DNA of 63,777 nucleotides, filler included, from Rhizaria sp. SCN 62-66 (Eukaryota), in the NCBI GenBank assembly GCA_001724265.1. It is 3 parts of 3 records of this genome, joined end to end, with 100 filler letters (N's around TTAATTAATTAA, not from the genome) between each part and the next. Parts side by side here need not be neighbours in the genome. Positions count along the whole stretch, not along the records: positions 1 to 23,596 come from MEDY01000426.1; positions 23,697 to 47,283 come from MEDY01000427.1; positions 47,384 to 63,777 come from MEDY01000488.1. One strand, given 5' to 3'. A model generated the notes under the pieces. The model did not search any database. It was not told where the DNA came from and saw only the letters and a list, made by a program, of their open reading frames with translations. The translations under genes were made by a program, and so were the position numbers. Shown here in pieces: positions 8,143 to 50,886 of this stretch (its first letter is position 1; every line of letters starts with the position of its first letter).

Positions 8143-11100
8143 TCAGAAAGGGTTGACGGCGCGCGCAAGTTGTGCAACCCACTCAGGAACGGTCTTGGGG
8201 GCAACTTTGCACGCTTTGAGCGCCTCATCCGACAGCCAGACGTGACGCACGTACGGCTCGCGCAGCGCGGGCGAGTCGACCGGCACGGTCACGGCGACGG
8301 GGACCGTGGTGGACACGGGCGCCGCCGGGATGAGCGTAGTGCCGGCGCCCGAGGCGCTGGAGAAGCTGTGGCTGCGCGAATGGCGGCGCGACTTGTGGCG
8401 CGGCGCGCGCGGGGGCGCGGGCAGCACGAGGTTGCCGGCCGCCAGCGCCTCGATGAGCGGGTCGGGCACCATGAAACACGGCGCGACCTGCGCGAGCACG
8501 GGGGTTGTGACGGCCGGCGTCAGGGGCGACGCTACAGTCTCGCTGTTGACATTGACAGCGCCGGCCTCTGTCGAATAGCGCGGGCTCGCCGCCGAGTTAG
8601 GCATCGCGGGATGTGACTGAGCGCGAAGGTAGGCCGCGTGCGCGATGATGTGCTTGAGGTGCGCAGCCAGAGGGTCGCTGCCCAGAGCAGGGAGCTCCAG
8701 AATGAGGTCGGTGTGAGAGGCGCCGTGGAAGATGTCCAGCCACACACGGTGTCCGCGCTAAAAACATAAGGAGAGCAAACATAAAAGCGTGTGAAAAAGT
8801 CAATACAACTTAAAAAGGATCGTCAGGTATCATAAATCAGATATGAAATGCTGACTGAGTCTTAAAGCGCTCAGTGAAACGTACCATGCTGAACTCGCGC
8901 GCGAGTTGCCACGCTCCGACCGCGGATGTGGTCTTGTCGCGCGTGCCGTGCATCAGGAACACTGGCGGGAACACCATCGGCCTCTGTTCTTTGCCGCCTC
9001 CTGCAGCGGCGCCAGTGGCGCTGCCGCAGCTGTCGGTCCTGCTCATCCGAGCCTTCGCGAAATCGTCGCTGGCGCCGCTTTGGCCGAAGTCGCTGTTGGT
9101 GTTGGGGAGACTGTCGGCGGAGTTGTTCGCGGGGGGCGTAAGCAGCGGGCCCGGCCCAAGGACCTTGGCGGCCATGTGAACGGGGCTCATGTGCAGCGCC
9201 GCTGTGCGCTCCTTGCTGCCGCCGACGCGCATGACGGAGCGCAGCATCGATGACGGCAGCCCGCGCTCGGAGAAGGTGGCCTCGGCGTGGAGCAGGTTGT
9301 AGGGTCCCGAGAGTCCGACGACAGCGGCGACCTTGAGCAGCCACGCCGCGGGCAACACAGGCAGCTGCGCAAGGCGGTCGCAGAGGTAGAAGTCCGCGTC
9401 TAGGCCGCCGCCCTCTTCCTCATCATCATCATCATCATCGTCGTCGTCATCGTCGTCGTCGTCGTCGTCATAGTCATCAGCGGGCTTGACTTCGACCTCG
9501 CTGTCGTCGCCGTCGCAATCACGCACGGCGCAGTCGCGGGCGCCAACCGGCTGCTGCTGCTGCTGCGGCAACACACGTGCACTGCTGCTACTGCTGCTGC
9601 TGCTGCTGCTGCTGCTCATGCTGCGAGTGCGGTAGCGGCCGGCACTTCGCGCGCGACTGCGGCGACGGCGGCGCTTGGCGTCCTCCTTGCGCTGCTGCCG
9701 CAGCTGGCGCCACGAGAGCAGCGCAGCCAGCAGCAGGATGTGCGCGCCCGCGCTCTGGCCGACCACGGTGACCTGATCGGGATCGCCGCCGTAGGAGCGC
9801 GCGTGGCGGCACACCCAGGTGAGCGCGTTGCACACGTCCAGCAGCATGTCCGCGATGTCGCCTACAGATACAAATGCGGATGAAGAAACAAGACAAGGTG
9901 GGCTTATAAGATTAGTTAGTGTGCATTAACCGGGTGAAGTGATAGAAAGTGAATGTTGGTTCAAATAGTCAAATTGCGCACCTTGGGGGAAGTTGCGGTA
10001 GTCGATGCAAAACACTACCACACCCTTGCCCGCGACCGCAGACACCATCTCGGGCGCGGCCTGACTAAAAGGAGCCGGGAAAGGGTTCAACGTGACACCA
10101 GGAGGAAGCTCGGGCGCATCAACCTGCTGTTGTTGTGAGGACTTTACCTCGTCATTGGCACTCGCACTGGAGTTAGCCCTGTTGCTCCTGTTCGTGCCAG
10201 CGCTAGCGCTGCTGCTCGAGGAGCTGCCACTTGGGTGATAGAAGGGCCTGAGCTCGATCGGAACACCCTGACTGCCCGCGTCACCGACGCCGCACACCGC
10301 AGCATCAAGAGCAGACTTGCCGTTGGTGCCAACGCCAGCGCTGTTAGGAGTAAACCCGGGCCCCGGGGCAGCGAGATTGAGGCCCAGGAGTGCCGCCCAC
10401 ATGCGGAAACCAATGGTCCACGCGCCGCCGCAAACAAACACGAGCACGGGCAGACCGGCCGAGGGCGGCGCCGCGGCGCCAGAGGAGGAGCTGCTGTTCG
10501 CGCTTGAGCTGGCGGCGTGTGCGTGGGATGATGAGCAGGGAATTGACTTGCTCAGATCATTGTAGTCGGCAACGTTGTCGCTCACGCTCTTGCGCAAAGA
10601 CGCCGGCGCGAGCGGCTTAACTTCGGTGTTAGCGGCGTCACTAGCGCTGATGTTGTAATCACGATCGCTGTGAGAGACAGCGTCGTCGCCGTCATCCTCG
10701 GTCGCGGAGACGCTGTGGATGCTGTCACGGTCACTCTGATCTTGCTCGAGCTGGCGGTGCTCGAACCCGATCTCCATAACAGGCAACGCCTGCGACGACT
10801 CCTCGAGCGCGCCCACCACACTCGCGTTATCGGGCTCGCCGTCGCTGCTAAGCTCGCAGTCGCTGGTGGCCTCGCAGTCGCTGTCAACGACCGGTGTAGT
10901 CCCGTCGCAGTCCTCGGCGCCCTCGCCCGCGGGCGTCGTGTCCGGCGGCGCCAGGAGAGCCCACGCAAAGAGCGCGCCAGTGGCCGTTACCGTGAGCGCA
11001 GGCAGGTGCCACAGAGAGCGCAGTAGCGGCCGGAAGGAGGGGAACGCAGTGGACGCCGCCGCGCGGCGGATGTCGCTGAGGCCCGACAGCTGCGGTGCGG

Positions 11101-13108
11101 CGGCGGCGGCAGCAGCAGCAGCAGCAGCGGCAGCAGGAGTCGGTTCGTGGTCGGTGGTATAGTCACCGTCCGCTGTGCCGATAGGAGCGGAGCCGTCCGC
11201 AGTCCGGCTGGCAGTGCCTGTCTTGGCCTTAGTCGCCGGGGAAGCGAGCCTGCTTAGGGCCGCAGCCTTCGAGTGAGCTGACTTAGCGGTGCTAACAGAG
11301 CGCGCACGCAGCTTGCCCCGGCTCGCGATCGCGGGCGACACGGACGCAACGCCCGCTCCAGCACCCGCATCAGCGCTGTCGCCCGCCCCGTTCGCCTGCT
11401 GCTGCTGCTGATGTTGCTGCTGCTGGACGTAGCCGAGCACCGACGGGACGCCGGCATCCGAGTACTGCAGATGTGCGAGCGAAGGCGGCAGGTACACGTC
11501 GACGAAGTTACGCGGGTTCGATCCGTAGCGCAGCCCGCGCTTGACGGGCGCGAAGTACAGATACTGCGGCAGTAGATAGAGCCAGGTGGGGACGAGGCAG
11601 ACGATGAACAAGTTAAGCCGCGCGAGCATCACGGCCCAGATGGGCGTGGTGGCGAGCGCGGCGATGAGCTTGAGCGCCAGCCCCAGCAGCAGGAGCACCT
11701 CGTCCAGCAGGCGGCGCAGGTAGAAGAGCGCCGACGCCGCGGCTGTGAGCAGGAGTGCAAGGGCGAGGTGGAACGGCAGCAGCGGCAGGCGCAGCAGGAC
11801 GGTATAGAGCGTGGACTGCGCCAGGGTCGGAGTCGTGGGGGCGAGCGTGAAGGCGGCAAGCGGGTCGAAAGAGCGGCTGAGGAACTGCAGCATGTCGCTC
11901 CACAGAGACATCGGGCCCTCAGGGGCACTCTCAGACTCAGCCTCCGCTTCAGTCTCAGTCCCAGTTTCAGCCTCGGCCTCAGCATCAAACCCGGTCTCTG
12001 TCTCTGCGTCGGTCTCGGTCTAGGGCGCTGCGCTGCCGTCCAGCAACACGCCACCATCGGTCTCGGCGACATCCGCGTCACCGGAATTCGCGACCGCGCC
12101 AACCGCTGTGTACGTGTACTTGCGATTCACGTCGGTGCTGTCAAACGTGACAGACCGAGAGTTGGCCGCGGAAATACTCGCTGCAGAAACAGTGGCGGCA
12201 GTGTCGACGTCGCTCACACTGTGGCTGTGGTTAGTCTGTTGCTGTTGTTGTTGCTGGTGTTGTTTGTGGTCATCTGAATGCTGTTGCGACAGCGACGGCC
12301 CCCGTGGCATCTGCTGGAGCTGCTGCAGCTGCGGCATTGAAAGGTCCATCGGTAGCGCAGACAGCGAGTTAGAGTCAGCGCGGGCGCTTCTAGCGTCATT
12401 TGTGGGGGCAGCGCTGTCTGTTCTGGCTCTTGCAGAGGCAGTATTCGAAGCAGTGTGCGCAGAGTAGAAGACGCTTGTATCGCGCAACAGCGCGATTTGC
12501 GAGTCACCAGCATTGGCGCCTGCATTTGAAGACGAAGACGACGACGATGACGACGACGACGACGATGCCATGGACGACGAAGAGAGGGTCAAGAGCGCGC
12601 TGCTGTTCATCGCATCATCAGACCCCGCGCGGCCGCTTCTGGTGCTCTGCCCCGGCGTCTGCTGTGTCGTTGTCGTCGTTGTGGGCATCAGCACGCGCGC
12701 GCGCGCAGCGGGTGTGACCTGCGCGGCCGCGATATGCAGCGGCGTGAGCGCCTGTAAGTGGCTGTGGCTGCGGCCATGTGAGTGTGCGGAGCCCGACAGC
12801 TGCACGGTCTTGTGTAGCGAGCGCGTCGGCGTGCGCAGCGCCGTGGCGTCGACCAACGGCGCGGGGCGCGCGGTCAGGCGCGGGGACGGCGCCGCAACGG
12901 TCGAGTGCCGGCGCGCGGCGGCCGCACCGGGCTGGGGAGCTTGACACGCAGGCGTTGTCATCGTCGTTGTCGCATTAGGGCCGGAGGCGTGGGCAGCGTG
13001 TGTGTCGGATAATGAGTGTGTTGGCGGGCGGCGCGTCGGTGTGGACACTGCTGCAGTGTGCGATAGTAGGCCGGCGTCAATTGAGCCCGAACGGGACCCG
13101 TGCGACAT
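8143..13108 (-). CDS. Isoprenylcysteine alpha-carbonyl methylesterase (ICME/PCME)-like alpha/beta hydrolase with N-terminal low-complexity and hydrophobic regions; one in-frame TAG (12020-12022)
   Basis: Exons 13108-9982, 9861-8885, 8757-8143 total 4719 nt (in frame). Motifs YGSNPRNFVDVYLP, PVLVFVCGGAWTIG, CIDYRNFPQG, YGGDPDQVTVVGQSAGAH (nucleophile), GLSGPYNL, HGTRD and SHTDL match plant ICME family motifs as I know them. The start at 13108 requires TAG read-through; otherwise the start is 11911. Stop TGA. Confidence 0.85.
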
Positions 13109-13299
13109 CGCGATGGAGCTGCGGAGGCCCGAGAAAAAGCTTTCGAGGGAGATTCAAGCGGCAATTCAAAAATGTAGACAAAAGAACAGGAGCACCAAAC
13201 CTACAAAAAACGAAATAGTAAATCAAGTATTAAATGTGATTAGCACTAATTGTGTCTATAAAAATTGGTCTCGACGACTCAGTGCATGGATAAATACGT

Positions 13300-14235
13300 C
13301 AAAAGTTAAGCCATGTTGCTTGACCAGAGTGGTGACTGAAGCAAGTGGACTTGATGACTTTGTGGATATGTACGGTAAACCAGAAGCCAGGGCGTTTTAG
13401 TCTGTATTAGGGTATATATCGCATACGTGTGTGTATGACCCCGTAATATTTCCCTGTGGAATTGCGGGTATAACTCATCCGCGCTGGCACCACACCAAGC
13501 ATGACACGCATCGACAACTCGCCGATTCGCAGTTTGCATGGATGGCCCCCAGAAGGCCAAGAATGTGTTTGGTGACATTAACAGCTACGTAATTGGTGTC
13601 TATTGTGTGGGTGCCGCTGCTGCGCGATCATTGGTCTTGATAGAAGACAATGAGGTCGCCCACAGTGATTATCGCCACAAGCGCATCGTTCTCAATCGCG
13701 AGAAAAGGGATATAGAACTGAGACTAGCAGCACTTATAATGCCCATGCGACATGTTCAGGTTCTGCAGCGCGACTGCGGAATCGAATGTAACTGTGGGAA
13801 GCGATGAATTTTGCATTAGATCATGTTTCGTGTCTGACTCGCGAGCAGATTCGCAAGTGTGATCTTCAAGTTACGCATCACAGCGCGAACGATGAAAAAG
13901 CAAGTCCACCCCGGACTAACGTCATGTTTAAGTCCAGAGAACCGTGTATCTTAGTTTATTACTACATCACGAGCAAGATTAAAAACCCTTTTAGTCTCAG
14001 ACTGTGGGTTCCCCGTGCGTTCTTCCTAGACCACCAGCATGATCGTTATGTGCAGCTTGTAAAATGCTTATCAGTCACGTCAGGTTCATCTGAATTTCTT
14101 ATTTTTGCTGTTAACAAAGATACCGGTCTTTATTACAAAGCTATAGCTTTGACCTCACCATCTCAAATCTGTTCTCACATTTTCGACACATGTGAAGCGT
14201 GTAAAAGCCACATAGCCCTAAGCCTGCTCACTTGA
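13300..14235 (+). pseudogene. Decayed, frameshifted relative of the ARM-like gene at 60638-63238
   Basis: Collinear short matches by eye: SGLDDFV~SGLADFV; F*SVLGYI~FARILNYI; GDINSYVI~NPFVAEFI; VLQRDCG~VLQRSVSG; FALDHVSCLTREQ~YARNKASLTAEH; AVNKDTGLYYKA~AIDTDATAGVVYPA. Spread over three frames with stops. Confidence 0.45.
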
Positions 14236-23596: not shown

Positions 23597-23696
23597 NNNN
23601 NNNNNNNNNNNNNNNNNNNNNNNNNNNNNNNNNNNNNNNNTTAATTAATTAANNNNNNNNNNNNNNNNNNNNNNNNNNNNNNNNNNNNNNNNNNNN
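23597..23696. other. Artificial contig spacer (N44-TTAATTAATTAA-N44)
   Basis: Exactly 100 nt, with a central palindromic six-frame stop linker. Identical to the spacer at 47284-47383. Confidence 0.97.
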
Positions 23697-23737
23697 TTTA
23701 TTTTTCTTTGTATTTATTCATTTGGTTTTCAGCTAAA

Positions 23738-25287: not shown

Positions 25288-25320
<33 letters not shown>

Positions 25321-27098: not shown

Positions 27099-27129
<31 letters not shown>

Positions 27130-27519
27130 TCGCCGCCGCAGGAGCGGCGATCGCGGCCGGTGTGGCGACCGTCGTGTCATGCACAACAACTTGCTTCTCC
27201 GTGCTCATAGTCACCGTCTCCGTTACGGTCACGGCCACCGCCTCAGCCGCTACCACCGCTACCGCCGGCACGCTCAGGTCGGCGTACGCAGGCCACCGGT
27301 GCGGCGCCGAGGGCTCCTGCATCGGGATCCCGCAGAGGCCCTTACACTGCAGCGAGGCGCTTACGTCCGACGCGAAGGGGAAGTTAAGCCGGCCTGAGCA
27401 GAAGTTAAGCCGTTTCTTCTCGGCACCACTCTTCTCAGCGACAACAGTGTTCAGAGAGTCGCCGTTGTTGTCGCCGTCCGCGTTGGCGCCATCGCAACTG
27501 CCATTGCTATTGCTGATAC

Positions 27520-27562
<43 letters not shown>

Positions 27563-30500
27563 GAGTGAAGCGAGAGTGGACAGAGCACTGCTGTTGATCG
27601 CTAGCGCAGCTGCGGCAGTACTGGACATCGTGCTGACGCAAAACACGTGCGGCTGCGTCAAAACACGGCGGTACAGCAGTAAATACGCGGTAGACGTGCG
27701 GACGGACTCGACGGTCACGGGGCGCAACACGCTGTCGTTACAGTCGAACCAGCCAATCTCGGTCTGAGAGGAGAAAAACACACAAAAAAGATAAATAAGC
27801 AGGTATATAATGTGTTATTCGGCTAAAATTAACTTCATATACGGAATGTCGATAGAAATACACTTCAGCGAAATGTAAAGTCTTACTAATGAAATGCAAG
27901 TAGTTTAATAGCCACGCAGGTCTGAAAAAGACGCATGAAAGCGACGCGTACCTTGATCGAGGCCGTGTAATGGCCGCCGCCGACGCCGCCGACGTGGTGA
28001 ACGACAGCCGCCAGCTCATACGCGCCGCCGCCGGGCAAAGTCAAACCACGCTGGCGCTGCTTCGGCTGCTTCTGCGTCGGCTGCTTGTTTTTAGATAAGC
28101 CGCCACAAGTACTGGCGTCGCGCACACTAGCGGCAGGGCTCAAGCTGCTAGACTTCGTCTCAGACTTGGAGTTGGACTGGGAGGTTTGAGAGTCTTCTGC
28201 CGTCCCGCTCTCGGTGGCGTCAACGTCAGAGTCATCAGACTCATCAGAGTCCGAGTCGAGTGAAAGCCAGGGAGCGAGGTCCCAGCTCTCGCTGACGGGG
28301 AAATCGACGAAATCAGGCAGTTTACGGCCAGTTTCGGTGAAGCGCTTCAGTTGCAGGACCAAATAGGGCGGCAAAGCGGTCAGAGAGGTCTTGACAGTCG
28401 CCTTGCGGGGTGCCTTGCATTGCGAGCACCTGTGTCCGGTCCGACACAGCAATAATGTCGCAGCAAAGAGTAAGGGAGAGCGAGAAGTTAAAATATGATA
28501 TATGAGATTTGAAGACATAGATAAACAAAACAATACATTTGTTCCAGAAAGAGAAACAAGCCTGCTTAATTCAAATGATATCAATTTACTATACGTGAGA
28601 TATATGCGTCGATTTGTGTTACATACCGCCATGACTCCTCGCCGTCGAGCACCTCAGTGGCCAGCAGAGCAGACAGACACTGCGAAATAGTCGTGAAATT
28701 GGTCGTCACCTTCCTGTTGACATTCACCGGCGGCTGAACATACGAGCCGTAGCCGCCGCCGTAGCCTCCGCCGTAGCTCGCATTGCCGTAGCCACCGTAG
28801 CTGCCGTTGCCATAGCCGCCGTAGCTGGAGCCGTAGCCATAATACTGCGGCTGCTGCTGCTGCTGGGTGTAAGCGCTTTGCTGCTGGGTGTACGCGCTGT
28901 TGTACGCAGGCGGGTTGGCGGGCAAGCGCGGCGGCGGCTTCGTGGTGTTGGGGGCGGGCGCGGGCGCAGCAGCACTGCCAGTGCCGGCGCTAGAGACTGC
29001 GGTGGCACTAGGAGACTGAGGTTGCTGTGGCTGGGCCTGGGCTTGGTTGCGCTGCTGCTGCTGCCTCTGCCCGGGGCCCAAAGCAACCGCATTCGCACCA
29101 GAGCCAGAGCCAGAGCTGTGACTTGGGTTAGATCCAGAGCCGGAGCCAGCGCCAGAGCCGGAGGCAGGAGAGGGAGCGTTGTCGTCATTGCTCAGAACAG
29201 TGTCCGCATCAAAGCCCTTATCGTTGTTGTTACTGTTGTTGGAGAGGTGGGTAAGGGGCAACGGGGGCGCGGCTAAGGGGGCCTTGTTGGCAGAGTCTAA
29301 GGGGGTACTTACAGCAGGATCAGCAGTCGCATTGGCAGCGGTCTCGACAGCGTTTGCGTTGACAGGGGCTGAGATAGCAACAGCATCGGCGTCAGCGTTT
29401 GTCTTTGCGCTATCGTCCTTATTGTCCTTCTTTTCCTCGGCCTCGTTGACCTCATCACCTTCATTAGCGTTCTCCTCGTCTTTGTTGCCATCGTCAGCGT
29501 CATCCTCGCCTTCGTCTTCGTCGTCGTAGTCGTCGTCAAGAGCAGGCGGCAACGACAGCTCACGCGTCACTTCGCTCTTCGCAAGCGCGCCAGTCGCATC
29601 AGCCCGCGCATTCGCGCTGGCGGCCGCTTGCACCGCAGGCGCGGGCACCACTGTCACGCCAGAACCCACCGCAGCGTGTGCGCTGTTGACGCCACCAGCC
29701 GCGCCAGCAGTGTTTGCGGTCGCAAAAGCGGTCGTGTTAGCGGGATTGGGCAGCGTCGTGGTCGTGTAGAGCGGCAGCGACAGACAGCGCCACGGCTCGA
29801 ACCTCTCTGACTTGTACCGGCAGTCGCAACACTGCAGCACGGTCCTGCTCTGGCCCATGAACAGGTCGGTAACCACTGACCGCGAGTGCGCGAGAGTCTG
29901 CTGCCACGCCTGCGCAGCGCGGTCGCGGAGACGCGGCTTAACTTCCTTCGCGGGCGGTTTAACCTCTGTCGCAGCGGACGCAGCAGCAGAGGACGCCGGC
30001 TTCGGCGACGCAACGCCAGAAGTACCAGAAGTACCAGAAGTACTGGTACTCGTGCTCGCGGTGGCGTTAGTCTTGTTGTTGTTAGCCGAGCTCGCGTCTG
30101 TGGGCGCTTTGTTGTTATTGCTGCTGCTGCCGCCGCCGCCGGAGGAGGACGATGCCTTGGCCGCCTTGGCAGCGGCTTTCTCTTGCGCTTCCTGCTTCTT
30201 CTTAAGTTTAGCCGCAGCCCTCATATCCCTGCGCTGCCGCCGCACGTCGCCGCCGTAGTCTCCGGCGGTACTTACATTCTTCCGGTCGAGGTCCTCGTGG
30301 ATTGCATCCAGGATAAATGTAAGTACTTCGTGTGCGTCGTGCTGGTCCCAGCCGCCCCACCCCGCGTCAGCGCCGCCCGGGGCCAGCGCTAGCGCGTCCT
30401 TGAACGGCAGCAGACTGACCGTGGCGCCGCGAGCGACGGCGGCGACGGTGGCCGGGGAGATCCCGGTCCCGGAGACGGGCTTGATGTGGCTGTTGCTGAC

Positions 30501-33500
30501 GTTCTTGTTGATCGGCACTGGGCCGCTGCCCTGCCCCGCCGCCGCGGCCGGCGTGTTGAGAGTGACGGGCTTGGCGTTCGCGACGTTGGCGTTCAATGCG
30601 GCGGGAGCAGCAGCAGCCGAGGCAGAGGCAGAGGCGGAGGCGGGGCGGGCGCGGGGCGTTGCCAGGGACGGCGGCGGCACCACTGGTGGCAACGGAGCCA
30701 TTGCACCAGTACCCGCACTCGCAGAGCCAGAGCCAGAGCCAGGAGCTGCTACGGTAGCAGTGTTGGGGCTCGAGCTAGCGGCGGCAGAGGCAGGCCTCGC
30801 TGTGGGTGCAGTTGCAGTGACCTTGGCAGCAGACGGGTTGATAGCTGTCGCAGGGGCGGTAGTCGCGGCGATCACGGCGGCGGCCGTGGCGTTGGGATGC
30901 AAGGGGGAGAGGCCGAGCGCCAAGCGGCGCACGGCGACCCTTAGATGCTGCGGCAGGGGATCTAAAGGCTGCGCGGACGCGTAGTCACTTACATTTGCAG
31001 TCACCGCAAACAGAGACCGAGGCTGAGGCTGAGACTGGGGCTGGGACTGGGAGGTACTTAGACTAGCGCTTGGGGTACTTACACTGTTCTTAGGGACAAC
31101 GCAGAGTGACCTAGGGGCGTAGGCCAAGTAGCGCCACAGAGAGCGGCGCTGCGGGAGGCTCAGTTCCGAGAAAATCGCCGTTAAATGCTTTAAAGCAGCC
31201 AGACCAACATCAGAAGCAGCAGCAGCAGCAGCAGCAGCATCACTAGATGTTGTGTTATTGTCGCTCAGCTGTGTCGCCACCGTCACAGCCGCTGCAGTCG
31301 CCGCAAGCTTAACACTGTCGCTCACATGCCCCGCAGCACCCTTAGACGCCGTGTAGGTACCAGTGGCACTGGGACTGCAGCGCCAATGCTTGAGCTGCGC
31401 CTGCGGCAGCGCCCTGGCGGTGGCAGAGGCCAGTGCGAGACCCTTGACACTCACGGCGCCGCCGCCGGCGGTGGTGGCACTGGCACTGGCATTGGGATCG
31501 ACTGCGCTCTCACGGTTATTCGTGTGATTCAGAGCGTTAAGATGCGCCTCTGCTTCTGCGAGCGTGATTTCGGCCTCGAGTTCGGCCGTGCTCGCCGCTG
31601 TCACGGCAGACACAGGCGGGGCGTCTTTCTTGCTAGAACGGCTGAAAAACCCACCAATCTTGCTAAACAGACTAAAACCGCCGCCCCTTCTAGCCTTCCG
31701 CGCAGCCTTCCGCGCAGCCCTAGCCGCCGTAGCCGCCGCGAGCGCAGCCGTCTTGGCGGTGGCGGCAGCTGTGCCGGAGTAGTCGTCGCTGTCTTCGGCC
31801 GCCGCGGCTTCACTTTGCGCAAGGGCGACGGCGTCGGCGAGAAGTAAAGCCGCGTCTCCGTAGGGGTACTTCGACGAAGATGACGTCGAATCTTGAGTCG
31901 TCTCGGTCTCGTTATCATCGTTATCAGCCAAAGCACCCTCATCAACAGCATTATCGCGGTCTATGTTGTTCTTGTTGTTGCTGTTGTTGCCGTTGCGAGA
32001 GTGACTGTGAGCAGTGGCAGTGGCGGAGGCGCCCGCCCATCCACGCCATAGGTACTTAAACTCGCGGGGGGTACTCGCCGTCGCGGAGGAAGTTGAGCCG
32101 CCACGAGTTCCCGCTCCTCGAAAGTGGCCGTGGGCCGGAGGGCGCGGCTCGGCGCCGCTGTCGCTGGTGGCCCACTCACAGTCGCACGCGCACCCGCGTA
32201 AGGGGGTACTTAGACCGACGCCGCCGGGACTAGAGGCAGTCGGGGTTGCTGCAGTACTGCCAGAGTTCGCATCGTTCCCCAAATTCCCCATATTCCCCGT
32301 GTTGTTATTGGGATTGTGACGACGCTGGCGGCAGATGCAGACGCCGGGACCACTCACGGTGTTACCATCGTTGTTGTTGTTGTTCGCGTCGTCGATGTCA
32401 CTGCTGTTCTCAAGAGCGCTCGCGTTCGCGGCAGCGCTGTTGTTGTTGTCCCCGGTGCTGTGGTTGTTATCAGAGGCTTCAGGCGATGACGACGAAGTCG
32501 AGGACTCTGATACAAGCTCCCTGGGCGGCTTAACTTTGACGACCTTCTTGTTGGCGACTAAAAGGTACTTGGACTCGTCGATGACGTCACTCTCCTCGTA
32601 AAACCACGCAAAGCACTCGCCCGTCGCGGGGTATTTACACGCCAGCTGAGACTGGACAAGTGCCCCCTTAGATGGGTCCAAGGGGGCCGCGGGCGCAGGC
32701 AGGCCCGCAGCGCGCGCCTTCTTGACGGCGTCGGCGTGCGCTGCGGCAGCAGCGGCGGCGGCCGCAGCGGCCAGCAAGCGGCGGGCGCGACGGCGGCGGG
32801 CGCGGCGACGGTGGTAAGCCGTGGTTGCAGCGGCGGCAGCGGCAGCGGCGGCGGTGGCGGCGGCGGCGGCGGCGGCAGCAGCGGCAGCGGCAGCCTTATC
32901 AGCTGCCTTTTTCTCAGCCTTGCTCAGCGGAGCAACGGGCGCAGGCGCAGTTGCCGACGCTGCAGACGTGCTGTCAGAGACACTCTTGGCTGTGCTGTTT
33001 GTGTTGTTTGCGTTGCTTGCTAACACGACAACATCAGAGCTCGAGTTACTATTGTTATTGCTGCTGTTATTGTTATTGTTACTGTTATTGTTGCTGTTAT
33101 ACAGAGAAGGTCGGAGACGACGACGGCGTTCAACGCGGCTCATGCCACTTACACCGGCCTCACGGCCATTCCACTCTAAATACCCGCCCTGAGAGGTGTC
33201 TAAGTACCCCTTAGACGCGCAGTCAAGCCGCCACGCAGCGGCGGCGAGCGCGGCGGCGGGGGTGACGGCGCGGGCGCACGCGAGGCCGGCCCACTGAGAC
33301 AAAACAACCGGTTCCGAAAAATTGCCTGCAGTCGCAGTTGCAGCAGCAGCAGCGGCAGCAGAAGGAAGCCAGTCGACAGCATCCTTGTTCGTGAAGTGTA
33401 AGTGCGCCTGCGTAAGGGTGGGCTCGTCTAAGGGCAGCACGGCGACGGGGATGTACGGGGCCGTGGCCGTGACCGTGGCTAAATGCTTATAATAAGCCGC

Positions 33501-36500
33501 CGACACGAGTCCCTGGCTCGAGAACTTGCACCGCGCACGCCGCAAATCGCGGACAAAGCACTTGGACAGGAAGTACTCGCTCAGGGGCTGCACGCATCTA
33601 AGTAGCTGCAGCGCGGAGGCTAAGTAGCACGTGTTGCCGTGGTTGATGATACCAGTCAAAGGTGCGCGGCTTAAGATCGCAACATTGCCAGAGCTACTCG
33701 CGGTGCTCAGACCCGTGTTCGCAGCCTTGGCCCCAGTCTTCGCGCTCGCATTAGCCTTGGCATCGGCGCCGATATTCGCGCTCGTGATCGCGTTTGCGGT
33801 GTTGTTGTTTGCGAGAGGGACTGTTTTGAGCACGGCTTGGCGCAACGCCGCGAGCTGCGACCGCGTTAGGGGCCGGGACGGAGCGGTGACTGTCGCGGGC
33901 ACCAGCATCGAGCCACTTACCGGGTCCCAGAGGTACTTAGACTGTGGCGACAGGGACGACGACGACGAGGACGACGACGAGCCGTCTAAGGGGCACTTAG
34001 ACTCCGCCTCTTGCTCGTGACTATTGGGGGCCACGAGAGGGAGAAACGTGCGAGCAGCGTCGGCGACATAAGTTAAGCCGCCCACCGCAACCATGCGCGT
34101 CTCAGCAGCAGACCCTGACCCCGCCTCAGCCTCAGCAGCCGCAGTCGTGGCATTTGGATCGTAGTTAAGGTTGAGGTTCACCTTGGGGACTGTGTTCGTG
34201 TTGTTGTGCGTGTGTGCCAGAGTGTGCGACGGCAGCTGGTAACGCGTGGTGCTCACAGTCTTCGTCGTCGTTGTGGTCGTGAGCGTGGTCGTCGTCGTGC
34301 GCCGCTTGGTGACGCTGTGAGTACCCGCGACTGCGCCAGTACCTGTGACAGCGTCAGTAGTGTGATTGGAACCGGTGACACTCGTGGCGCCGTTGCTGCT
34401 GGTAGCAGGGACAGCGCCGCTTGCCTCGGCTGCGACAGAACCCTTGTTGTCAGTCCTGGTCTCAGGTTGAACGGTCTTAGCATCAGCGTTACTGCTAGCA
34501 ATCGCCGCCGCAGCTGCGGTCGCGGTAGCATCAGTCGGAGCAGTGGCATCACAATGAGCGTTGGTGTTCATGTTGGCCTTCGCAGCGACGCAGTTGCCGT
34601 CGTCGCCGTCATCATCCAACGCAGGCGCACTTGCATCCTCGTTGTTGGCATTATTATTATTGTTGTTCTTAGCACCTTTAGACTCGTCCTCGAGCTCGAA
34701 GTACTCTGTGTGATAGCCGATGTCAGTGACTTCAACGCGGCTGCTCACTGTCACTTGCTCGTGAGTGCTCACGGTCACTTTGCCCTTCGAACTACTCACA
34801 TTCGCACTCGCACTAGAGCTAGAGCTCGAGCTGTGCGAGTTGGTATCGTTGTAGGGGCAATAAAGCAACGGCACCGTGGGGATAGATCCTGTGAGAGCAA
34901 TTGCACGCGTCTGCGCAGTCGCTGAAGCTGCAGAAACTGGAGAGGCTGCGGCGGACGCGGATACTGAGACGGGAGAGGTTGTTGTTGTTGTTGTTGTTGT
35001 TGCTGTTTTAGCCTTAGTAGCAGAAGCTGAAAGAGGAGAGGGCTTGACTGTAGGCACTGGTAAGGGTCCGGCTAAGGGCAAGCGGGAAGGTAAGTCGCCA
35101 GTGACAGTGCCTTGCTCGTGAGGGGCACTGAGGTTGTGCGCGTAGGTGCTTAGACTCGCGAGATCGGACTCGACTGTCGCATCAACAACGGCAGCACCAG
35201 AGTTGTTGTTAGCTGGAGCGCACGTGCTATTGTTGTTGTTGTTGAGGGATTTGCTCACAGTCACGGTGTAAATCCCGGGCGTGGCCTGTGCTGGCAGCAT
35301 CACGAACAACTCAGCGCCCGGCACCGCTGCCGTACTGCGGGAATCAAAGGCAAGCCGCTTGCTCCTTAACGCGGAGTCGCCAGGCTTAGCCTCACCACCA
35401 GCAGCAGGTTGAACTTCTGCTGCGGCAAGGCACGGCGGCTTAACTTCCTGCTCGTAGGGCGCAGTCGAGACAGCCGTGTAGGCCGTGGCCACGGTGCTGG
35501 CCAAAACACGTGTCTGAGCCTCGATCAACGCAGTCTCAGCTAAACTACGCCTCGAGTTGTCGTCGCCACCCGTCTTCGTTTCAGACTCACTCTTGGTGGA
35601 AGTGGTTGGTGCGCTGGCTTGTGAGTCTGAGGGCTTTTGAGGAGGGGCAAAGGGCACGCGTAAGGGCCTGTAGTAAGGGTGCACGTGCCCCTTAGACGGG
35701 GTAAGTAGCACGGCCCTCACACTTACATCGTCATCAACAGCAGCATCTACCGTAGCCTCTACGGCGCCCTTAGCCTCAGCTGCACCCTTAGACTCGGCCG
35801 AGCCCTTAGAGTCAGCACGAGGCGTAGTCGTAGATGCGTCCTTCTCACGCAGGAGCCCCTTAGACTCGTTCGTGGCTGCGGGTAAGTACCCCTTAGGGCT
35901 CGCCTGCGAGCACAGCAGCGTGTCAGGAATCGCCGCCGCCGCCGCCGCCGCCGCCGCCCGCTGCTGTTGCTGCAGCAGCTGCTGCTGGTATTGGAACTGC
36001 TGCGGTTGTGTGACGTTGTTGTACGCGCCCGCAAGACCGATGTAAGTACCAGGCTTATAAGGGCCGCCGGGGGCGCCGTAGCCGTACTTAGGCGGGGTGT
36101 AAGCACCTCCGCCATTGCCATCATCATCGTCGTCCTCGTCCTCACCCTCACCCTCATCATCCTCGTCATCATCCTTCGCGTTGCCGTGGGCGTTGTTCTT
36201 GAAGAACCCGCCGACGCCAGTGCCGACGCCACTCACGCGTACCCGGGTACCCGGGGCCCCAGCCGTGTTACTATGGCCACTGTTAGAGGCGGGGGACGGC
36301 GCGGCCGTGCTGCCGGCGACGACGACAGGGCTCTGGTTGTGATGGGCGCCCGTACTGCCGCTCACAGCGAGGGCGCGGGCTGCGGAGGTCGTGTTCTGAA
36401 GTTTAGCCGCGCCGCTGCCGCTGCCAGGGCCGCCCTTAGAGGTGTTGTTGTAAGTGCCGGTTGTCGCAGGTGAGAGGAGGTCTAGGTGGTTGCCGTTAGC

Positions 36501-39857: not shown

Positions 39858-41790
39858 ATGCTTTGCATCTCTACTGCCCGCCTTCTCGCAGGTCCCCCCA
39901 GCCCGCCGATGCTCCAGTCGCGCCCGCGGCTCCGCGCCTTTTCTCGCGCCCTGCTCGCTATCGAGCGCTCTCTCGTCACATCCGCGACTCCACTCGACTG
40001 TCCCCCGGGCGCTTGCGGGCTCTACACTCCTTCGCAGCGTCTTTTGTCCCCCAACAAACTCGCGCTGGCGCCGATGACGCGTAACCGCGCAGATCCCTTG
40101 ACCGGCGTACCTGACGAGGCCACTGCACAGTACTACGCACAACGCGCCGGGGCCGGGCTGCTTTTCACGGAGAGCATCCAGCCCTCGGCCGAGGGACAGG
40201 GGTACGCGCGCACGCCGGGGCTGTACACGTCCGAGCATGCGCAAGCTTGGGCAAGGGTGAATGCCGCTGTCGCCACTTCTGCAGCGGCAGCAGCTCATGC
40301 TAACTATCTCCTCAACAGCAACAACAGTCGCAACGAGACTGATATTTTCTTTACGCAGCAACAAGAGCAAGAGCAGCGTGAGGCTGAGGCTCAAGAGGAG
40401 GCTGCTGCTGCCCCGTCTTTATCCAGCCTCCTTAAATCACTCTCTAGCAACAACAAGAACAACAACAGCAACTTGAACGACGCGACCGCTGCGTCGTCGA
40501 ATGCCTCCCATAGTGTTCCCCCGCCTGCGGTGATCGCGCAGCTCATGCACTGTGGCCGCGCGGCCCACAGTCGCAACCGCCCCACGGTCGGCGCGCCCCC
40601 CGTCGCCCCCTCGGCCATCGCGCTGCCGTGCACCGGCCGCGGCGGAGGGATCTGGACCGACGCGGCCGGCCTGCAGCCCTGCGACGCGCCCCGCGCGCTC
40701 GAGACCGGTGAGGTGCCACAAATCGCAGAGGAGTTCTACAACGGTACGGCAGAAGAAGCATGAATACGTAAAGCAAGAAAACGTAGCTTTCTCTAGCATC
40801 TAGTTCAAAAACGTGATTTCTCAACATAACCTTCACTCCAAGGCCCCGATCATTTGTTGGAGGGTTTTAACCCACTTCATGAATCTGTTTTTTTTTATAT
40901 GTCTGTCTTCTTTTGCGCCGATCTATAGCTGCATATCTTGCGGTAACGAAGGCTGGTTTCGCCGGTGTGGAGCTCCATGCGGGCTCTGGCTACCTCATCC
41001 ACCAGTTCTTGTCCATTTCTGCGAACCGTCGCATCGACAAGTACGGCAGTGGGACGCTGCAGGACCGCGTGCGCGTGCCGCTTCAAGTTCTTGAAGCGAT
41101 CAAAGCCGCGCTTGATGACGCCTCGAAACTCGCACTCAAGCAACAACAGCAGCAGTTACAGCAGCAGCATCAACAGCAGCAGCAGCAGTTGCAGCTGCAG
41201 GGCGCTAGTACCAGCTCTACTGCCAATAGCTCTGCGTTTATGCCTCACACCAGCACTCTCACCAGCGTTAATAGCACTAGCAGTTCATCTCACAACAACT
41301 CTCATACTGCGACGGCTTCTGCTGCTGCTGCTGCTGCTGTTGGTGGTAGTTCATTTTCCCGGTCAAAGTTCCTTGTTTCGCTGCGCATTTCCCCCGGCAA
41401 CCCGTTTAACGCGATCGACGAAGGCCCCGGGGACGAGCCTGCCCGTCTCTACTCTCTCCTGCTCTCAGAAGCGGCGCGGCTAGGCGTGGACATTGTCAAC
41501 ACTCACCCCCATGGCAGTTTCCCCATGGCCGCTGTGTGGCGAGAAGCTTTTGCTCTCACGAATCACAACGACCTCAGTAGCCACAGCCACAATCATGGCG
41601 CGATGGGGACAGGCGGGTTTAAAGTTAAGCCGCCCGCGCTTGTCGTTGCTGGCGGTGTCCGGACGGCGGCGGCTGCCACTGCGCTGCTTAAGCCGTGGTT
41701 GCGCCGTCCTCTGCCTCTGATCAAGCCTGCTTTCGCCCTCAATAGCAAGAGCAATAGCAACGCGGTGAACACGGGTAGAAACGCCGCTCA

Positions 41791-41826
<36 letters not shown>

Positions 41827-42265
41827 GTTTGGTTTGCTGTCACAGGAGACGGCTGATATGGCGGCTGCTGCTGAGGCTGAGGCCGAGGCCTTATACCGAT
41901 TCCACGAAGACTTCAACAGCAACGACTTGATGGCTGAGAGTGTGGCGTTCGATAGCAACGCTGCGAGCTCGTTCTACGGCATGAACAACAACAACCGTTA
42001 TAGCAGCGCTAGTGCGAGCGAGCTTGCGCTTGCTGAAGCGTACTGGATGACACAGTCGCTCGCAAGCTGCCCGCAGCCGACACGTGACTTAGCCGGCATG
42101 TGCGATGCTGTGGGCTTTGGACTGCCGTATATCGCCAATCCGGACCTCGGTGAACGGCTGTACCGCGGTTTCCCGCTCGCGGAGGCTGATAGGAAGACGT
42201 TTTGCTCGGCGGGAAGCAAGGGGTATACTGACTACCCAGTGTACGCTGAGAAGCAACAAAACTAA
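39858..42265 (+). CDS. Old Yellow Enzyme family NADH:flavin oxidoreductase (alkene reductase) with low-complexity insertions
   Basis: Exons 39858-40743 and 40929-42265 (start uncertain). LAPMTRNRA, YYAQRAGAGLLFTE, GQGYARTPGLY, QLMHCGR, PRALETGEV, AGFAGVELHAGSGYLIHQFL...NRRIDKYG, LRISPG, IANPDL, KGYTDYP. Stop TAA. Confidence 0.93.
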
Positions 42266-44218: not shown

Positions 44219-45487
44219 ATGAAGCGTAAGGTTCTTCTCATGGGCAAGGCCGGTTCCGGCAAGACGTCCATGCGTTCTATTATCTTCGCCAACTACCCTC
44301 CGCGCGACACGATGCGTCTGGGCCCCACATACGGTTTCGAGAACACCGACGTCAAGTTCCTCGGCTCCCTCGGTACGGCAACTTTGCACCGCCTATATCA
44401 TTCCTCGCTCCTATATAACTTTAATGTGCCATGTATTGTAACTGTATTGACGTGTGTTATTTGTTCCATCTTAATTCTCACTCATCTCACTCTTCTGTCT
44501 CCTCTTTTGTACTCTTGACCAAACACAACTCCACTTACGCCATTTTTTGCCGTGTTTTGCTAACGCTCTCTAGTGCTGAACCTGTGGGACTGCGGCGCGC
44601 AAGACGCGTTCATGGAAAACTACTTCGAGTCCCAGCGTGATCAAATCTTCCGCAACGTCGAGGTCCTCATCTACGTGTTCGACGTCGAGAGCCAAGACCA
44701 CGCCAAGGACATGGCCACCTTCCTCCGCTGCCTGTCTGCGATCGAGGAAAACAGCAAGGACGCGCGCGTCTTCTGTCTTATCCACAAGATGGACCTCATC
44801 CCCACGGACCAGGGCCGCCAGGAAGCGTTCCAGCAGCGCGCGCACCAGCTCACGAGCCATGCCAACGTCGTCCAGATCACGTGTTTCGGCACGTCGATCT
44901 GGGACGAGACGCTGTACAAGGCGTGGTCCGCCGTCGTGTACTCGCTCGTGCCCAACGTCGAGCGGCTAAGGGGGTACTTACAGAACCTCTGCGTGCTGTG
45001 CCAGGCGGACGAGGTCGTGCTGTTTGAGACGGCGACGTTCCTCGTCATCGCCAGCGCGGACAACCCGGAGCTTGCGCAGCTGCTGCTCGCCAACAAGAGC
45101 AAAAGCGCGAACAGCGGCAGCAACGGCGCCAACGGCGCCAACAGCGGCGCGGGCGCTGACGGCAGCAACGGCGGGGGTGCCAACGGCGACGGGGCTCTGG
45201 TGGGCTCCGAAGTTAGGCCGCCTGCCGATGCCCACCGGTACGAAAAGATGAGTAATATTATCAAGCAGTTCAAGCTGTCGTGCGCCAAGACACAGTCGTC
45301 GTTCCAGTCACTCGAGGTCGCGAGTTCCAAGGTGACGGTGATCATGGAGAAGTTCACGGCCAACACGTGCATCATGGTTGTGGTGAGTCATAATGATGGG
45401 ACGGGGAGGGAGCGCGTGCAGTCGGCAGGCATCCGGCTTAACTTGCTGACGGCGCGCGCACTCTTTGAGAAGTTCGTCAATGCGTAA
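44219..45487 (+). CDS. RRAGA: Ras-related GTP-binding protein A/B (Gtr1/RagA)
   Basis: Exons 44219-44372 and 44574-45487 (355 aa). [88 protein letters not shown]. Stop TAA. Confidence 0.96.
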
Positions 45488-47283: not shown

Positions 47284-47383
47284 NNNNNNNNNNNNNNNNN
47301 NNNNNNNNNNNNNNNNNNNNNNNNNNNTTAATTAATTAANNNNNNNNNNNNNNNNNNNNNNNNNNNNNNNNNNNNNNNNNNNN
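47284..47383. other. Artificial contig spacer (N44-TTAATTAATTAA-N44)
   Basis: Same 100-nt structure as 23597-23696. Confidence 0.97.
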
Positions 47384-48144
47384 AAGACTGCCCGCCGTAA
47401 GCCGCTGATCGTGTTCTCGCCCAAGTCTCTCCTGCGCTTCAAGGGCGCCTCCGCGACCTACGACGAGCTCGCCCCCGGCACCGCGTTCCGCCCCGTCATC
47501 GGCGACGCCACCATCACTGACCCCGCCGCCGTCAAGCGCCACATCATGTGCTCCGGCAAGGTGTACTTCGACATCGTCGACGCGCTCGAGAAGGCCGGCG
47601 TCCGCAACAAGGTACGCTTTTCACCAATCATCTCATATCACATCATATCACATCATATCATTCCAATTTCGCAAATCACGAGTTTGGAGGAAATCATTGT
47701 GAACTTTTCGGGTGGTTGTAGCTGACTAAGATATCAACATGTCATCTCGTTTTACACCCTAAACCATTATATTTTATTCACACCACACTTTACTCTTATC
47801 TTGTGCTCTATATCCCGCTTTTTGTCGTGCTTAATGTCTTAATCTTGTAGGTCGCTGTCACTCGCGTGGAGCAGATCGCGCCCTTCCCCAGCCGTGCGGT
47901 GCAGGCCGAGGACGCGCGCTACCCCAACGCCGTCGACACGGTCTGGGCGCAGGAGGAGCACATGAACATGGGCCCCTACACCTACGCCGGCCCCCGTGCC
48001 GAGACGGCCACCAAGGTCAACCGCGGCGACAACCACCGCGTCAAGTACGTCGGCCGCCCCCCCGCCGCCGCCGCCGCCACCGGCTCCGGCAAGGTCCATG
48101 CGCAGGAGCTGGAGAACTTCCTCGCCGAGCTCACCACGCTCTAA
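47384..48144 (+). CDS. 2-oxoglutarate (or 2-oxoadipate) dehydrogenase E1 component, C-terminal fragment (5'-truncated by contig edge)
   Basis: Exons <47384-47611 and 47851-48144. RKPLIVFSPKSLLR, CSGKVYFD, RVEQIAPFP, WAQEEHMNMG, YVGRPPAAAAATG...H..E. OGDH versus DHTKD1 cannot be resolved from this fragment. Stop TAA. Confidence 0.92.
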
Positions 48145-48153
48145 GTAGCTCCG

Positions 48154-48175
48154 CGTCTAAGGGGGTACTTAGACG
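48154..48175. repeat. Hairpin motif CGTCTAAG-GGGGTA-CTTAGACG (best copy of a dispersed motif family)
   Basis: Perfect 8-bp inverted repeat starting 10 nt after the E1 stop codon. Related copies at 29295, 32198, 33198, 33984, 35882, 44966 and 54808. Confidence 0.8.
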
Positions 48176-49775
48176 GTGCCTCAGTGTGATGCTACTCGTC
48201 TTCTTCGAAGCTAAGTGCTGCACGGTCGCCGTGCGTGTGCTAAGTCAAGCAGTACTTAGTGAGTCGCGGGTGGCGTTGCTGCTGTGGTTGCTTTGCTTAA
48301 GAGCGAATGAGTGGCCCCGGCATGTAAGTAGGACATACCACTCTCTCTTTATTTCTTTGTTCTTTGTTTCGCGACAGCAAAGGAAAGACGGTGAGGGGAA
48401 CACTGCTTAGATGCTTTATTCTATTGAAAGTGCGTCGTTCAATCAAGCCATTTCTTATTTTTTAAGTCCTCTTTTGCCTCGATAAGGAAGACTTTGTGAA
48501 AAGGAGCAAATGCTTGGTTGAAACAGCGTGCTTTGTTTGTGTTGGTTGTTTTTCGTGTTAGTCGTTAAGTCGTACGTTGAAGTTGGTTTTAAGTCGCTTT
48601 TTTAGTTGAACTAGAACTAACGTATTATATTATAGTCGACAACGGCAACTATTGCAATTCGACAACCTAATATCGCCGATAGTCGCGGCACTTAGTGCTG
48701 CTACGGTCGCTCTTGGATGTTGCTTTTGTCTTCGTTGCTGGTTGTTCGCCAAGGTCAAAGTTCAATCCATGATAATAATAATGATAATCATTCCTGTAGT
48801 CTCTGTTTTTTCTCTATCTGTGTTTTCTCTTTGTTCGCATGTTTCTTTTTTCTCTCTCGTGATCTCTCGTAAGCTCGAGTGGTGGTGTTTAGTCGATCAT
48901 GGTGTGGTCGCAGTGTTGCTGTGCTGCTGTCTCTCGTTGCTGCTGTTGTTGGCGGGCGCTGACTCTCGCATTCTCACGCGAGTCAGGGTTGTGCTTGTGT
49001 GTTGTGAGGTTGTTATTGTCTTTTACAGAGCTCACCTCGCTCTCTCGCGCTGTTGTTTGTTCCCCAAAACGAATGAATGGTGCGATTGACTGAGTCGTGC
49101 GCTTTGTGTGGTATTCTTACGTTATTTATTGATCGCCTCAACACTCATTCCCAAAAGCAAAAGCAACGATTACATGGGCAGCGAGTTGCGTTCATTCCAC
49201 GCTATGCACCCTCCAGACAACCCGCCGCATACTCCAGCTGCTTTTGCAGTTGCCGCTGTGACAGCACCAGAAAGCTCGTTGGAAGAGAGAGAGAACAAGT
49301 TGAGTGAGGACAAAGGGGAGAGCCGGAAAAGTCAGTGGAGCAAGATTACGTTCGTTTGCAGAGAGATATAGGCTGTGGAGACAGACTATTATCATAAATA
49401 AAATTTTATTTGTACACTGTATTCACATATGCATCCTTCGAAAGCTAGAAAGTTAAGCTATGAGGTAGACGTTGGTTGTGTGCGATTCAAACAGCAGGAC
49501 ATGATTGACCCGAGTCCAAGGGGAGTGACATAAGCATATACAAGCTATTTATATGTATTCGTGCTGATTCTGTCGATGCGTAGTTGTCCTCACAATGGCC
49601 ATCTTGATCTAAATATGTCCGAATTATTCCGTATTTACTTAAACACGGTGATGATAACTGCAGACCCAGGAAGGCACTACTTATCACCATGTTTTAATCA
49701 CATTGACACAGCTAGTTTAATTTACTTATGCACTATCTTAGCGGTTATACTCGCGCTGTCAAGGCGTGTCGGGGC

Positions 49776-50886
49776 TCAGTCGAACTTGTAGCGTGTGCCG
49801 CCGCCGGCGACGAACGACGAGGAGGCTTGCATGTACATGCCCACAAAGCCCATGAACAGACACTGCACACACAAAAAACAAGAGACATAGTAGCAAAGTA
49901 TACGTGAGATTTAGCACGAGTAAACAACAGAGACAACTGTGATACCATTGTGAGAAAACAGGATTGCAAACCAAGTACACCAAACGCCATCACTTCTGCA
50001 ACAGCGCATGTGCTTTTTGTCACAGTAGTGGCTTTACATAAAGCCGCGCAATTTAGGGACACACACCGCTTGTTTCAGAGTATACATGGATCTATATTTC
50101 GTCGTGTCCATTGTGCGTGCGATTTCTACCCGATTTGCAACGTACCGAGGGTGCGCAAAATGCAATCGCGGCGCCATGCCACGAGTCCGGGTACGTGGTC
50201 GCCGCGAACACGGCCAAAATGGGGCAAAACGTCAGCACCAGAGCAGCGCGCTTCGTCTAAATGGAGAGAAAGGCAGTGGCAGCAGACGACATTGTCGGGA
50301 ATTAGTGTTGGGTTCACAGTCGCAGCGCCGATCGTCGAATCAGAGAACTCGTTAAAGAGATTGGAGTGAGCTGCTGATCGACACTTCAAGCTCATATCGG
50401 CACAAAACGAGAATATAATCAAGAAGCACAAATAATTCAGACGATACAGTCGTTCCAGAAGAAGCAGTTGTTCGCGTTTGGCGTGTGTGCGTACCTGGTC
50501 AGTGAAGGTTCCCTTAGGGTTGGAGACAGTCCAGGGCGTCTCCTCAACGACAGGATTGGAGAGCGCAAAGGAAAACAGCGCAATGGACGCCGCAATCGAA
50601 ATGCCCCAGTGGAGGTAAAATGCGATGAGCGAAGTTGAGGAGAGAATAACGCAGGCCAAGAGGCACTGGAGGGCGACATGCATAGTCCGAGTGCGGTTCC
50701 AAATTGGGTCGAAACGGGCATGCAGGGAGATCGGCTTAACTTCAGACGCTAAGCTCGAGCAAAAGCAGAAACACAGGAATAAAAAGTAAAGGAGGTTGCG
50801 TGAATGTAATAAAGTTTGAGTTCGACATCAATATCTTCGTTGTGGCACTGTAGAGGGGAGCGGAGAGACGTACCGGAACTTAGCAT
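49776..50886 (-). CDS. Small hypothetical membrane protein (~154 aa, about 4 hydrophobic segments)
   Basis: Exons 50886-50874, 50748-50495, 50256-50146, 49862-49776 splice in frame with GTACG donors. Ends GGGTRYKFD-TGA. An additional upstream exon is possible. Confidence 0.65.

Follow-up and report, generated by a model that had tools for sequence, protein, structure and literature searches.

Why should one exact word of 11 bp, AAGTTAAGCCG, recur inside the open reading frames (ORFs) of several different genes of a single eukaryote, and in both orientations? The question is raised by a stretch of 63,777 nucleotides assigned to Rhizaria sp. SCN 62-66 (assembly GCA_001724265.1), referred to here as the window, in which the word and its reverse complement, CGGCTTAACTT, together occur 11 times without a mismatch. 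The word is non-palindromic. We lean, with somewhat better than even confidence, towards the view that AAGTTAAGCCG is a genuine DNA-level word that has been fixed by a directional force, either selection through a binding factor or biased conversion.

The window consists of contigs A (1-23596), B (23697-47283) and C (47384-63777), placed end to end. The joiners at 23597-23696 and 47284-47383 are of the six-frame-stop type (44 N, TTAATTAATTAA, 44 N), and as three binned contigs have been joined artificially, distances and synteny across the joins are meaningless. Contigs A, B and C hold two, eight and one exact copies, respectively, a density of ~173 per Mb or about one per 6 kb. An exact word count returned all 11 positions given in the original prediction, and its peptide readings (EVKP/KVKP, RLNL/RLNF and GLT) were reproduced as well. 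In the following list, sense and antisense refer to the gene in which each copy lies.

10613..10623, minus strand: sense copy in the esterase-like gene (ORF 9929-12019, minus strand), read E-V-K-P
11610..11620, plus strand: antisense copy in the same esterase-like gene (ORF 9929-12019, minus strand), read R-L-N-L in a hydrophobic N-terminal stretch
27381..27391, plus strand: antisense copy in the C-terminal tail of the USP/UCH gene (minus strand), read R-L-N-F; the next copy is 21 nt away
27402..27412, plus strand: antisense copy in the USP/UCH gene tail, read R-L-N-F
29934..29944, minus strand: sense copy in the giant USP/UCH ORF (28584-36749, minus strand), read E-V-K-P
32526..32536, minus strand: sense copy in the giant USP/UCH ORF, read K-V-K-P
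34070..34080, plus strand: antisense copy in the giant USP/UCH ORF, read G-L-T; the sole copy in the other stop-free antisense frame
35436..35446, minus strand: sense copy in the giant USP/UCH ORF, read E-V-K-P
41622..41632, plus strand: sense copy in the old-yellow-enzyme gene (ORF 40883-42262, plus strand), read K-V-K-P in an expanded, poorly alignable interval
45434..45444, minus strand: antisense copy in the RagA/Gtr1 GTPase gene (ORF 44564-45484, plus strand), read R-L-N-L in a conserved C-terminal block that is gap-free against 10 homologues
50732..50742, minus strand: sense copy in ORF 50129-50827 (minus strand; no family found), read E-V-K-P

These 11 copies far exceed every expectation that was calculated. 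Dinucleotide shuffling of the window predicts 0.01 copies, with no more than one in any of 100 shuffles, and third- and fourth-order Markov models predict 0.025-0.037. A further control, which had been put forward as a check on the original prediction, retains both amino-acid sequence and codon usage: when synonymous codons were shuffled 500 times across 13 ORFs (11,751 codons), 0.20 copies were expected and the maximum was two. Outside simple repeats, AAGTTAAGCCG is the commonest 11-mer of the window. Nine one-mismatch relatives were also seen, where 0.94 matches with at most one mismatch are expected in all. Four other genomes totalling ~28.4 Mb contain three copies (~0.1 per Mb), seven other RagA-type loci (103,256 bp, from prokaryote-labelled genomes) contain no exact or one-mismatch copy, and 87 viral loci (775,723 bp), chance matches from a 14-mer scan that serve as a control, contain none beyond the seeding match. 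The excess over chance that was first noticed from the sequence is thus borne out by the shuffles, by the Markov models and by outside DNA, and the word is hundreds of times commoner than chance, on both strands inside genes.

Each of the 11 exact copies is contained in a frame that runs for 200 codons or more without a stop. As 70% of the window is taken up by frames of this length and 0.70 to the 11th power is 0.02, a preference for coding DNA is mild at most. That every copy is exonic, as had been supposed, is plausible on the basis of open frames, Pfam hits and one protein alignment.

The word is neutral with respect to strand. Five copies lie on the plus strand and six on the minus strand; relative to their genes, six are sense and five antisense, with three of each in the USP gene and one of each in the esterase-like gene. 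Independence of strand, as originally proposed, therefore holds, whereas the accompanying claim of independence of frame does not, as 10 of the 11 copies share the codon boundaries AA/GTT/AAG/CCG (p about 0.006-0.012). Every sense copy (6/6) is read xAA/GTT/AAG/CCG, encoding (E/K)VKP and often followed by Pro, and four of the five antisense copies are read CGG/CTT/AAC/TTx, encoding RLN(L/F), the remaining one being read G-L-T. This preference is accounted for by the word itself: TAA is present in one frame per strand, which blocks two of the six frames, and two further frames, rarely used or unused, require TTA, a rare codon (64 of 938 Leu codons) that disfavours them. The permitted peptides are in excess, with 10 VKP tripeptides against 1.3 expected (8-fold) and eight RLN against 2.2 (3.6-fold), whereas the disfavoured tripeptides GLT and KLS show none, from which it follows that the word shapes the proteins and not the reverse. 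GTTAAGCCG encodes six of the 10 VKP, and CGGCTTAAC four of the eight RLN. GTT, CTT and CGG are minor codons here, yet they are used in the word copies. Together these observations support an effect at the DNA level and not at the level of peptide or codon usage. Selection for hidden stop codons was considered and rejected, as stops in the other frames show no enrichment, their number being a little below that of the shuffles.

How a copy arises could be followed in the RagA gene, which encodes the sole well-conserved protein that holds a copy and the sole one among the proteins searched that yielded relatives. The window protein was aligned with 10 homologues, of which the closest is a metagenome protein (P0006, 68% identity); the named matches are from oomycetes and one chytrid (48-50% identity) and do not place the host lineage. 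Copy 45434 falls in a C-terminal block without gaps in any of the 11 sequences. The Asn of this block is invariant (11/11), the residue that precedes it, Leu in the window protein, varies among L, V, M and I in the homologues, and the Arg position is variable, the 68% relative already having Arg and with it R-L-N. The codon that provides the word's first two bases encodes Leu in the window protein only, where nine of the 10 homologues have Ile and one has Val. A gap-free block with a unique Leu indicates that the word was completed here by a non-synonymous substitution at a conserved position, not by insertion. The one-mismatch variant at 45210, read E-V-R-P, pairs position by position with E-S-R-R in the closest relative, directly after an insertion of ~46 residues that is found only in the window protein. 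Separately, RagA-type genes whose identity reaches 70% along part of the protein were observed in long contigs of bacterial-labelled genomes (L177, L178 and L176, a 705-kb contig from a genome with the label Nitrospirales); these may represent eukaryotic contamination of bins or bacterial Rag-like GTPases.

The two AAGTTAGGCCG variants that had been reported, at 2463 and 45210, were found again among the nine one-mismatch relatives, which are as follows.

2463..2473, plus strand: position 7 A>G; sense, in the giant histidine-kinase/response-regulator ORF, read E-V-R-P
13303..13313, plus strand: position 11 G>A; in a 151-codon open frame with low GC content at third codon positions (GC3), of doubtful coding status
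30204..30214, plus strand: position 6; antisense, in the USP/UCH ORF
31805..31815, minus strand: position 5; in the USP/UCH ORF
31842..31852, plus strand: position 5; in the USP/UCH ORF
32090..32100, plus strand: position 6; in the USP/UCH ORF
36399..36409, plus strand: position 6; in the USP/UCH ORF
45210..45220, plus strand: position 7 A>G; sense, in the RagA gene, read E-V-R-P
54607..54617, plus strand: position 4; antisense, in the giant ORF 54456-59738

Eight of the nine mismatches are at positions 4-7, the TTAA centre, and one is at position 11, which leaves AAG and GCC free of mismatches (p about 0.002). This distribution looks like a recognition pattern with firm ends. A copy with two mismatches is also present at 29955, 21 nt upstream of the exact minus-strand copy at 29934. 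A bipartite site of the form AAG-N4-GCCG was examined and rejected, since 16 occurrences were left after removal of the word and its eight centre variants, and nine control patterns gave 3-16.

An exact, non-palindromic word that occurs in both orientations and few frames, with a peptide excess, a substitutional origin and near-misses, has the signature of an uptake sequence, and this signature implies a fixation bias acting on duplex DNA. New copies would arise by ordinary point substitutions where the sequence already resembles the word, and a directional force would bring them to fixation and hold them exact. As orientation is immaterial, the force would act on double-stranded DNA. Its most likely source is a putative sequence-specific DNA-binding factor that recognizes the 11 bp, with sites maintained either by selection for the action of the factor or by a transmission bias in which conversion favors the bound allele; recognition by a protein is inferred, and fixation may be due to either selection or drive. 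Coding constraints would merely filter placement, leaving AA/GTT/AAG/CCG (xVKP) and its exact complement CGG/CTT/AAC/TTx (RLNx). A bolder version, which we regard as possible but on balance improbable, is that this eukaryote carries a self-propagating word, evolved or invading, whose factor biases repair or meiotic conversion or tags DNA as 'self'; substitutions would then carry such a word from gene to gene despite the damage done to the encoded proteins, and it would represent a eukaryotic counterpart of bacterial uptake or Chi sequences. Of the original prediction, the DNA-level signal is supported, as it survives codon shuffling and has both sense and antisense copies, while insertion of the word by a mutational process conflicts with the one well-conserved site, in RagA.

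Exact words that override both codon usage and amino-acid sequence are a hallmark of the bacterial uptake, Chi and HIP1 systems, in which a DNA-recognizing machine biases fixation. The DNA uptake sequence (DUS) of Neisseria and the uptake signal sequence (USS) of the Pasteurellaceae are short, non-palindromic words that are over-represented hundreds-fold in about equal orientations; many copies are coding and in preferred frames, the encoded peptides are enriched, one-mismatch relatives are common, and copies arise by point substitution with a fixation bias. AAGTTAAGCCG resembles them in being far above chance, in both orientations and in coding regions, with a peptide excess and near-misses. 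It differs in that its host is a eukaryote (spliceosomal-type introns, poly(A) RNA) and not a competent bacterium, in its density of ~1 per 6 kb against ~1 per kb for uptake words, and in that no pairing of copies into terminator-like inverted repeats was seen in the window. Chi of enterobacteria is likewise an over-represented, non-palindromic word tolerated in genes, and it is recognized on DNA by a repair complex. Chi is strongly skewed by strand with respect to replication, whereas AAGTTAAGCCG, counted by the plus and minus strands of the contigs and not by replication direction, is divided 5:6 in the window and 3:3 in one gene; both orientations thus occur in single genes. To our knowledge, a RecBCD-type system is not to be expected in a eukaryote. 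HIP1 of cyanobacteria is also a highly iterated word in coding sequence, but it is an 8-bp palindrome, whereas AAGTTAAGCCG has 11 bp and is not its own reverse complement. Rickettsia palindromic elements and other in-frame mobile insertions share with the present word the property of being repeated DNA that is translated inside ORFs, but they measure 100-150 bp with recognizable flanks, in contrast to 11 bp and a RagA copy that is no insertion.

Among eukaryotes, the 13-mer of PRDM9 hotspots and the 11-bp consensus of the yeast autonomously replicating sequence (ARS) are short, factor-bound words dispersed in both orientations, as is the Ruby motif of Caenorhabditis elegans PIWI-interacting RNA genes. 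These motifs differ from AAGTTAAGCCG in being mostly non-coding, degenerate and not enriched hundreds-fold in exons. Hotspot motifs are moreover eroded by drive, whereas AAGTTAAGCCG has accumulated. If the signature were genome-wide, it would point to a sequence-specific factor with a chromosome-wide role or to a drive of the conversion type by which its own sites are built up; the latter, if true, would be the reverse of the recombination-hotspot paradox. The word may also be usable as a marker for binning contigs of this organism.

Several points weigh against a directional force acting on DNA. A limited literature search found no description of the word or of a comparable eukaryotic phenomenon, returning primer coincidences and unrelated papers, and the missing precedent may mean novelty or a mundane cause that has been overlooked. 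The distribution is uneven, with eight of the 11 copies in one 23.6-kb contig and six in one gene, and the basis is ~64 kb of the organism's DNA plus 3.5 kb found through the word. The origin test covers a single conserved gene, with an exact copy and a variant, to which its outcome properly applies; the majority of copies are in parts of proteins of such low complexity that insertion and substitution are indistinguishable. The sharp edges and unrelated flanks of the copies, described below, would also fit the pasting of a fixed oligonucleotide.

The uneven distribution bears most directly on a mixed group of other causes, namely small-RNA mini-promoters, sites of programmed rearrangement or base modification, or a local feature of a few genes. 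The concentration in contig B speaks for them, as does a second enriched word family (GTCTAAG/CTTAGAC and relatives) concentrated in the USP gene, which hints at a general word-forming tendency in the region; the copies in two other contigs and four different genes speak against. We consider these causes rather improbable as a group, with a residual share of belief left to them because little of the genome is visible and so many copies lie in one contig.

The main specific rival to fixation at the DNA level is a mutational process that writes the word, in which a fixed oligonucleotide is pasted or templated and later decays, its source being a transposon excision footprint, aborted reverse transcription or a patch templated by an abundant RNA or DNA molecule. 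In favor of this, the copies have very sharp edges, in that the inner 8-mers occur 13-14 times, 11 of them inside the full 11-mer, and the flanks of the 11 copies are unrelated save for a weak preceding G (6/11) and following C (7/11). Creation followed by decay would also yield the 11 exact and nine one-mismatch copies. Sense copies 29934 and 41622 and variant 45210 appear at the 3' edge of lineage-specific low-complexity insertions, a placement that the alignment backs for 45210 only; for copy 41622 in the reductase, phmmer aligns the flanking blocks only, and placing this copy where an insertion ends is a conjecture. Against pasting, comparison with the 10 homologues shows no insertion at either the exact RagA copy or the variant, and the closest homologue already has three of the four residues. 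An 11-nt insertion would break the frame, but all 11 copies are in long open frames. No terminal repeats, target duplications or longer shared sequence were found around the copies, and no non-simple repeat families of at least 30 nt were found in the window, so that the marks of a mobile element or excision footprint (insertion, shared flanks, terminal repeats, target duplication) are absent, with the insertion test applying to RagA only. Rfam covariance models gave no match at the gathering score across the whole window and none at E up to 10 around 27340-27450, leaving no Rfam family at or near the copies. We therefore hold pasting to be unlikely. A structured-RNA fragment had been considered separately on account of a likeness to a conserved 5S rRNA segment and was rejected for want of an Rfam match; a splice signal was rejected because real introns begin with GTACG and are AT-rich, and because copies lie on both strands of one ORF.

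An origin at the protein or translation level, with a selected xVKP peptide or codon context and identical DNA left by recent duplication of repeat units, would suit the uniform (E/K)VKP of the six sense copies, often with Pro following, and the EVKP-type tandem repeats with the same word in unrelated viral and metagenome contigs. It is largely refuted by the antisense copies (5/11), which encode RLNL, RLNF and GLT and include those in the conserved RagA block and the USP tail; in addition, synonymous shuffling abolishes the excess, the unrelated flanks argue against duplicated units and off-frame stop codons are not enriched, which makes this origin very improbable. An artefact introduced during sequencing, assembly, polishing or binning, for example residual adapters or linkers or a mixture of contigs from different organisms, is scarcely credible. 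The window is indeed made up of binned metagenome contigs joined together, and a 100%-identical Joint Genome Institute (JGI) contig, L151, may share its sample. However, the copies do not interrupt reading frames and agree with conserved residues, among them the invariant Asn of RagA, which linker remnants would not do. By word matching, runs from other samples and years contain 0.91 of the words sampled from 27000-36900, and the repeat-rich, GC3-rich coding style is the same in the three contigs.

Searches beyond the window were made with a two-copy pattern. The metagenome collection yielded 81 loci, nearly all of them unrelated tandem repeats and many encoding EVKP-type peptides, and the viral collection yielded five, all unrelated tandem repeats. 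L151 proved to be the window's own locus. The same metagenome contains L163, where two antisense copies 18 nt apart (3436-3464) are each read G-L-T, and whose other features are an intron-containing, fumarate-reductase-like gene and an N/A-rich open frame; this contig, found through the word itself, is probably from the same organism. Confinement to the window, which the original prediction named as an outcome that would speak against it, is thus countered weakly, by copies in three separate contigs and by L163, with its word-based discovery. In the viral contigs L002 and L003 and in many of L093-L173, the word extended to 12 bases makes up tandem (EVKP)n repeats; their carriers are unrelated phage, giant-virus and metagenome contigs, and they are false positives in word-pattern searches.

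The organism is an uncultured wastewater eukaryote from a binned metagenome. Its eukaryotic nature follows from AT-rich GT...AG introns that separate conserved exons, from eukaryote-only genes (RagA, USP) and from poly(A) RNA runs that hold the region. As judged from sampled words, 27000-36900 is present in bioreactor, wastewater and activated-sludge metagenome runs from several studies, with a poly(A) RNA run holding 0.29 of the words. GC content declines along the window, from 0.71 to 0.47. Conserved domains are spread over adjacent open frames parted by AT-rich intervals that start with GTACG and end with AG. Three introns that were read (21445-21640, 22020-22090 and 40743-40927) are short, AT-rich and within GC-rich genes, and begin G/GTACG, not GTAAGT.

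Genes identified in the window encode RagA/Gtr1, a USP/UCH ubiquitin hydrolase, a hybrid histidine kinase/response regulator, an S28 peptidase, an old-yellow-enzyme reductase, a class II tRNA synthetase and the end of a 2-oxoglutarate dehydrogenase. Protein searches with the S28 peptidase returned no match but itself, and those with the esterase N-terminus returned none. The proteins are greatly enlarged by very long tracts of low complexity (Q, N, A, S and T), for which CAG, CAA and GCC repeats code. An open frame of 2,326 codons at 431-7408 (plus strand, GC3 0.87) looks like a giant hybrid histidine kinase, with HATPase_c just upstream (2-427) and a response-regulator receiver domain near the end of the frame. 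The USP/UCH gene runs for ~10.5 kb on the minus strand, from 36749 to about 26201, and ORF 26201-27814 starts with the end of the USP domain. Between its Cys box and the next conserved catalytic block are ~1,100 in-frame low-complexity residues within one open frame of 2,722 codons, an extreme expansion for the interior of a catalytic domain.

The second word family, CTTAGAC/GTCTAAG, occurs 22 times, often as GTCTAAGGG or GGGGTACTTAGAC, with flanks that are unrelated like those of AAGTTAAGCCG. About 15 of the 22 are in the USP gene, where they are read S-K-G, S-K-Y and Y-L-D through rare codons such as TCT and TTA. The sites are as follows.

24832-24870: CTTAGAC/GTCTAAG
26942: CTTAGAC/GTCTAAG
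27047: CTTAGAC/GTCTAAG
29295: CTTAGAC/GTCTAAG
31053-31341: CTTAGAC/GTCTAAG
32205: CTTAGAC/GTCTAAG
33198-33216: CTTAGAC/GTCTAAG
33426: CTTAGAC/GTCTAAG
33932-34002: CTTAGAC/GTCTAAG
35149-35865: CTTAGAC/GTCTAAG
36550: CTTAGAC/GTCTAAG
48141-48174: CTTAGAC/GTCTAAG
54810: CTTAGAC/GTCTAAG

Three of these form quasi-palindromes of 19-20 bases, at 33198-33216, 33984-34002 and 48155-48174.

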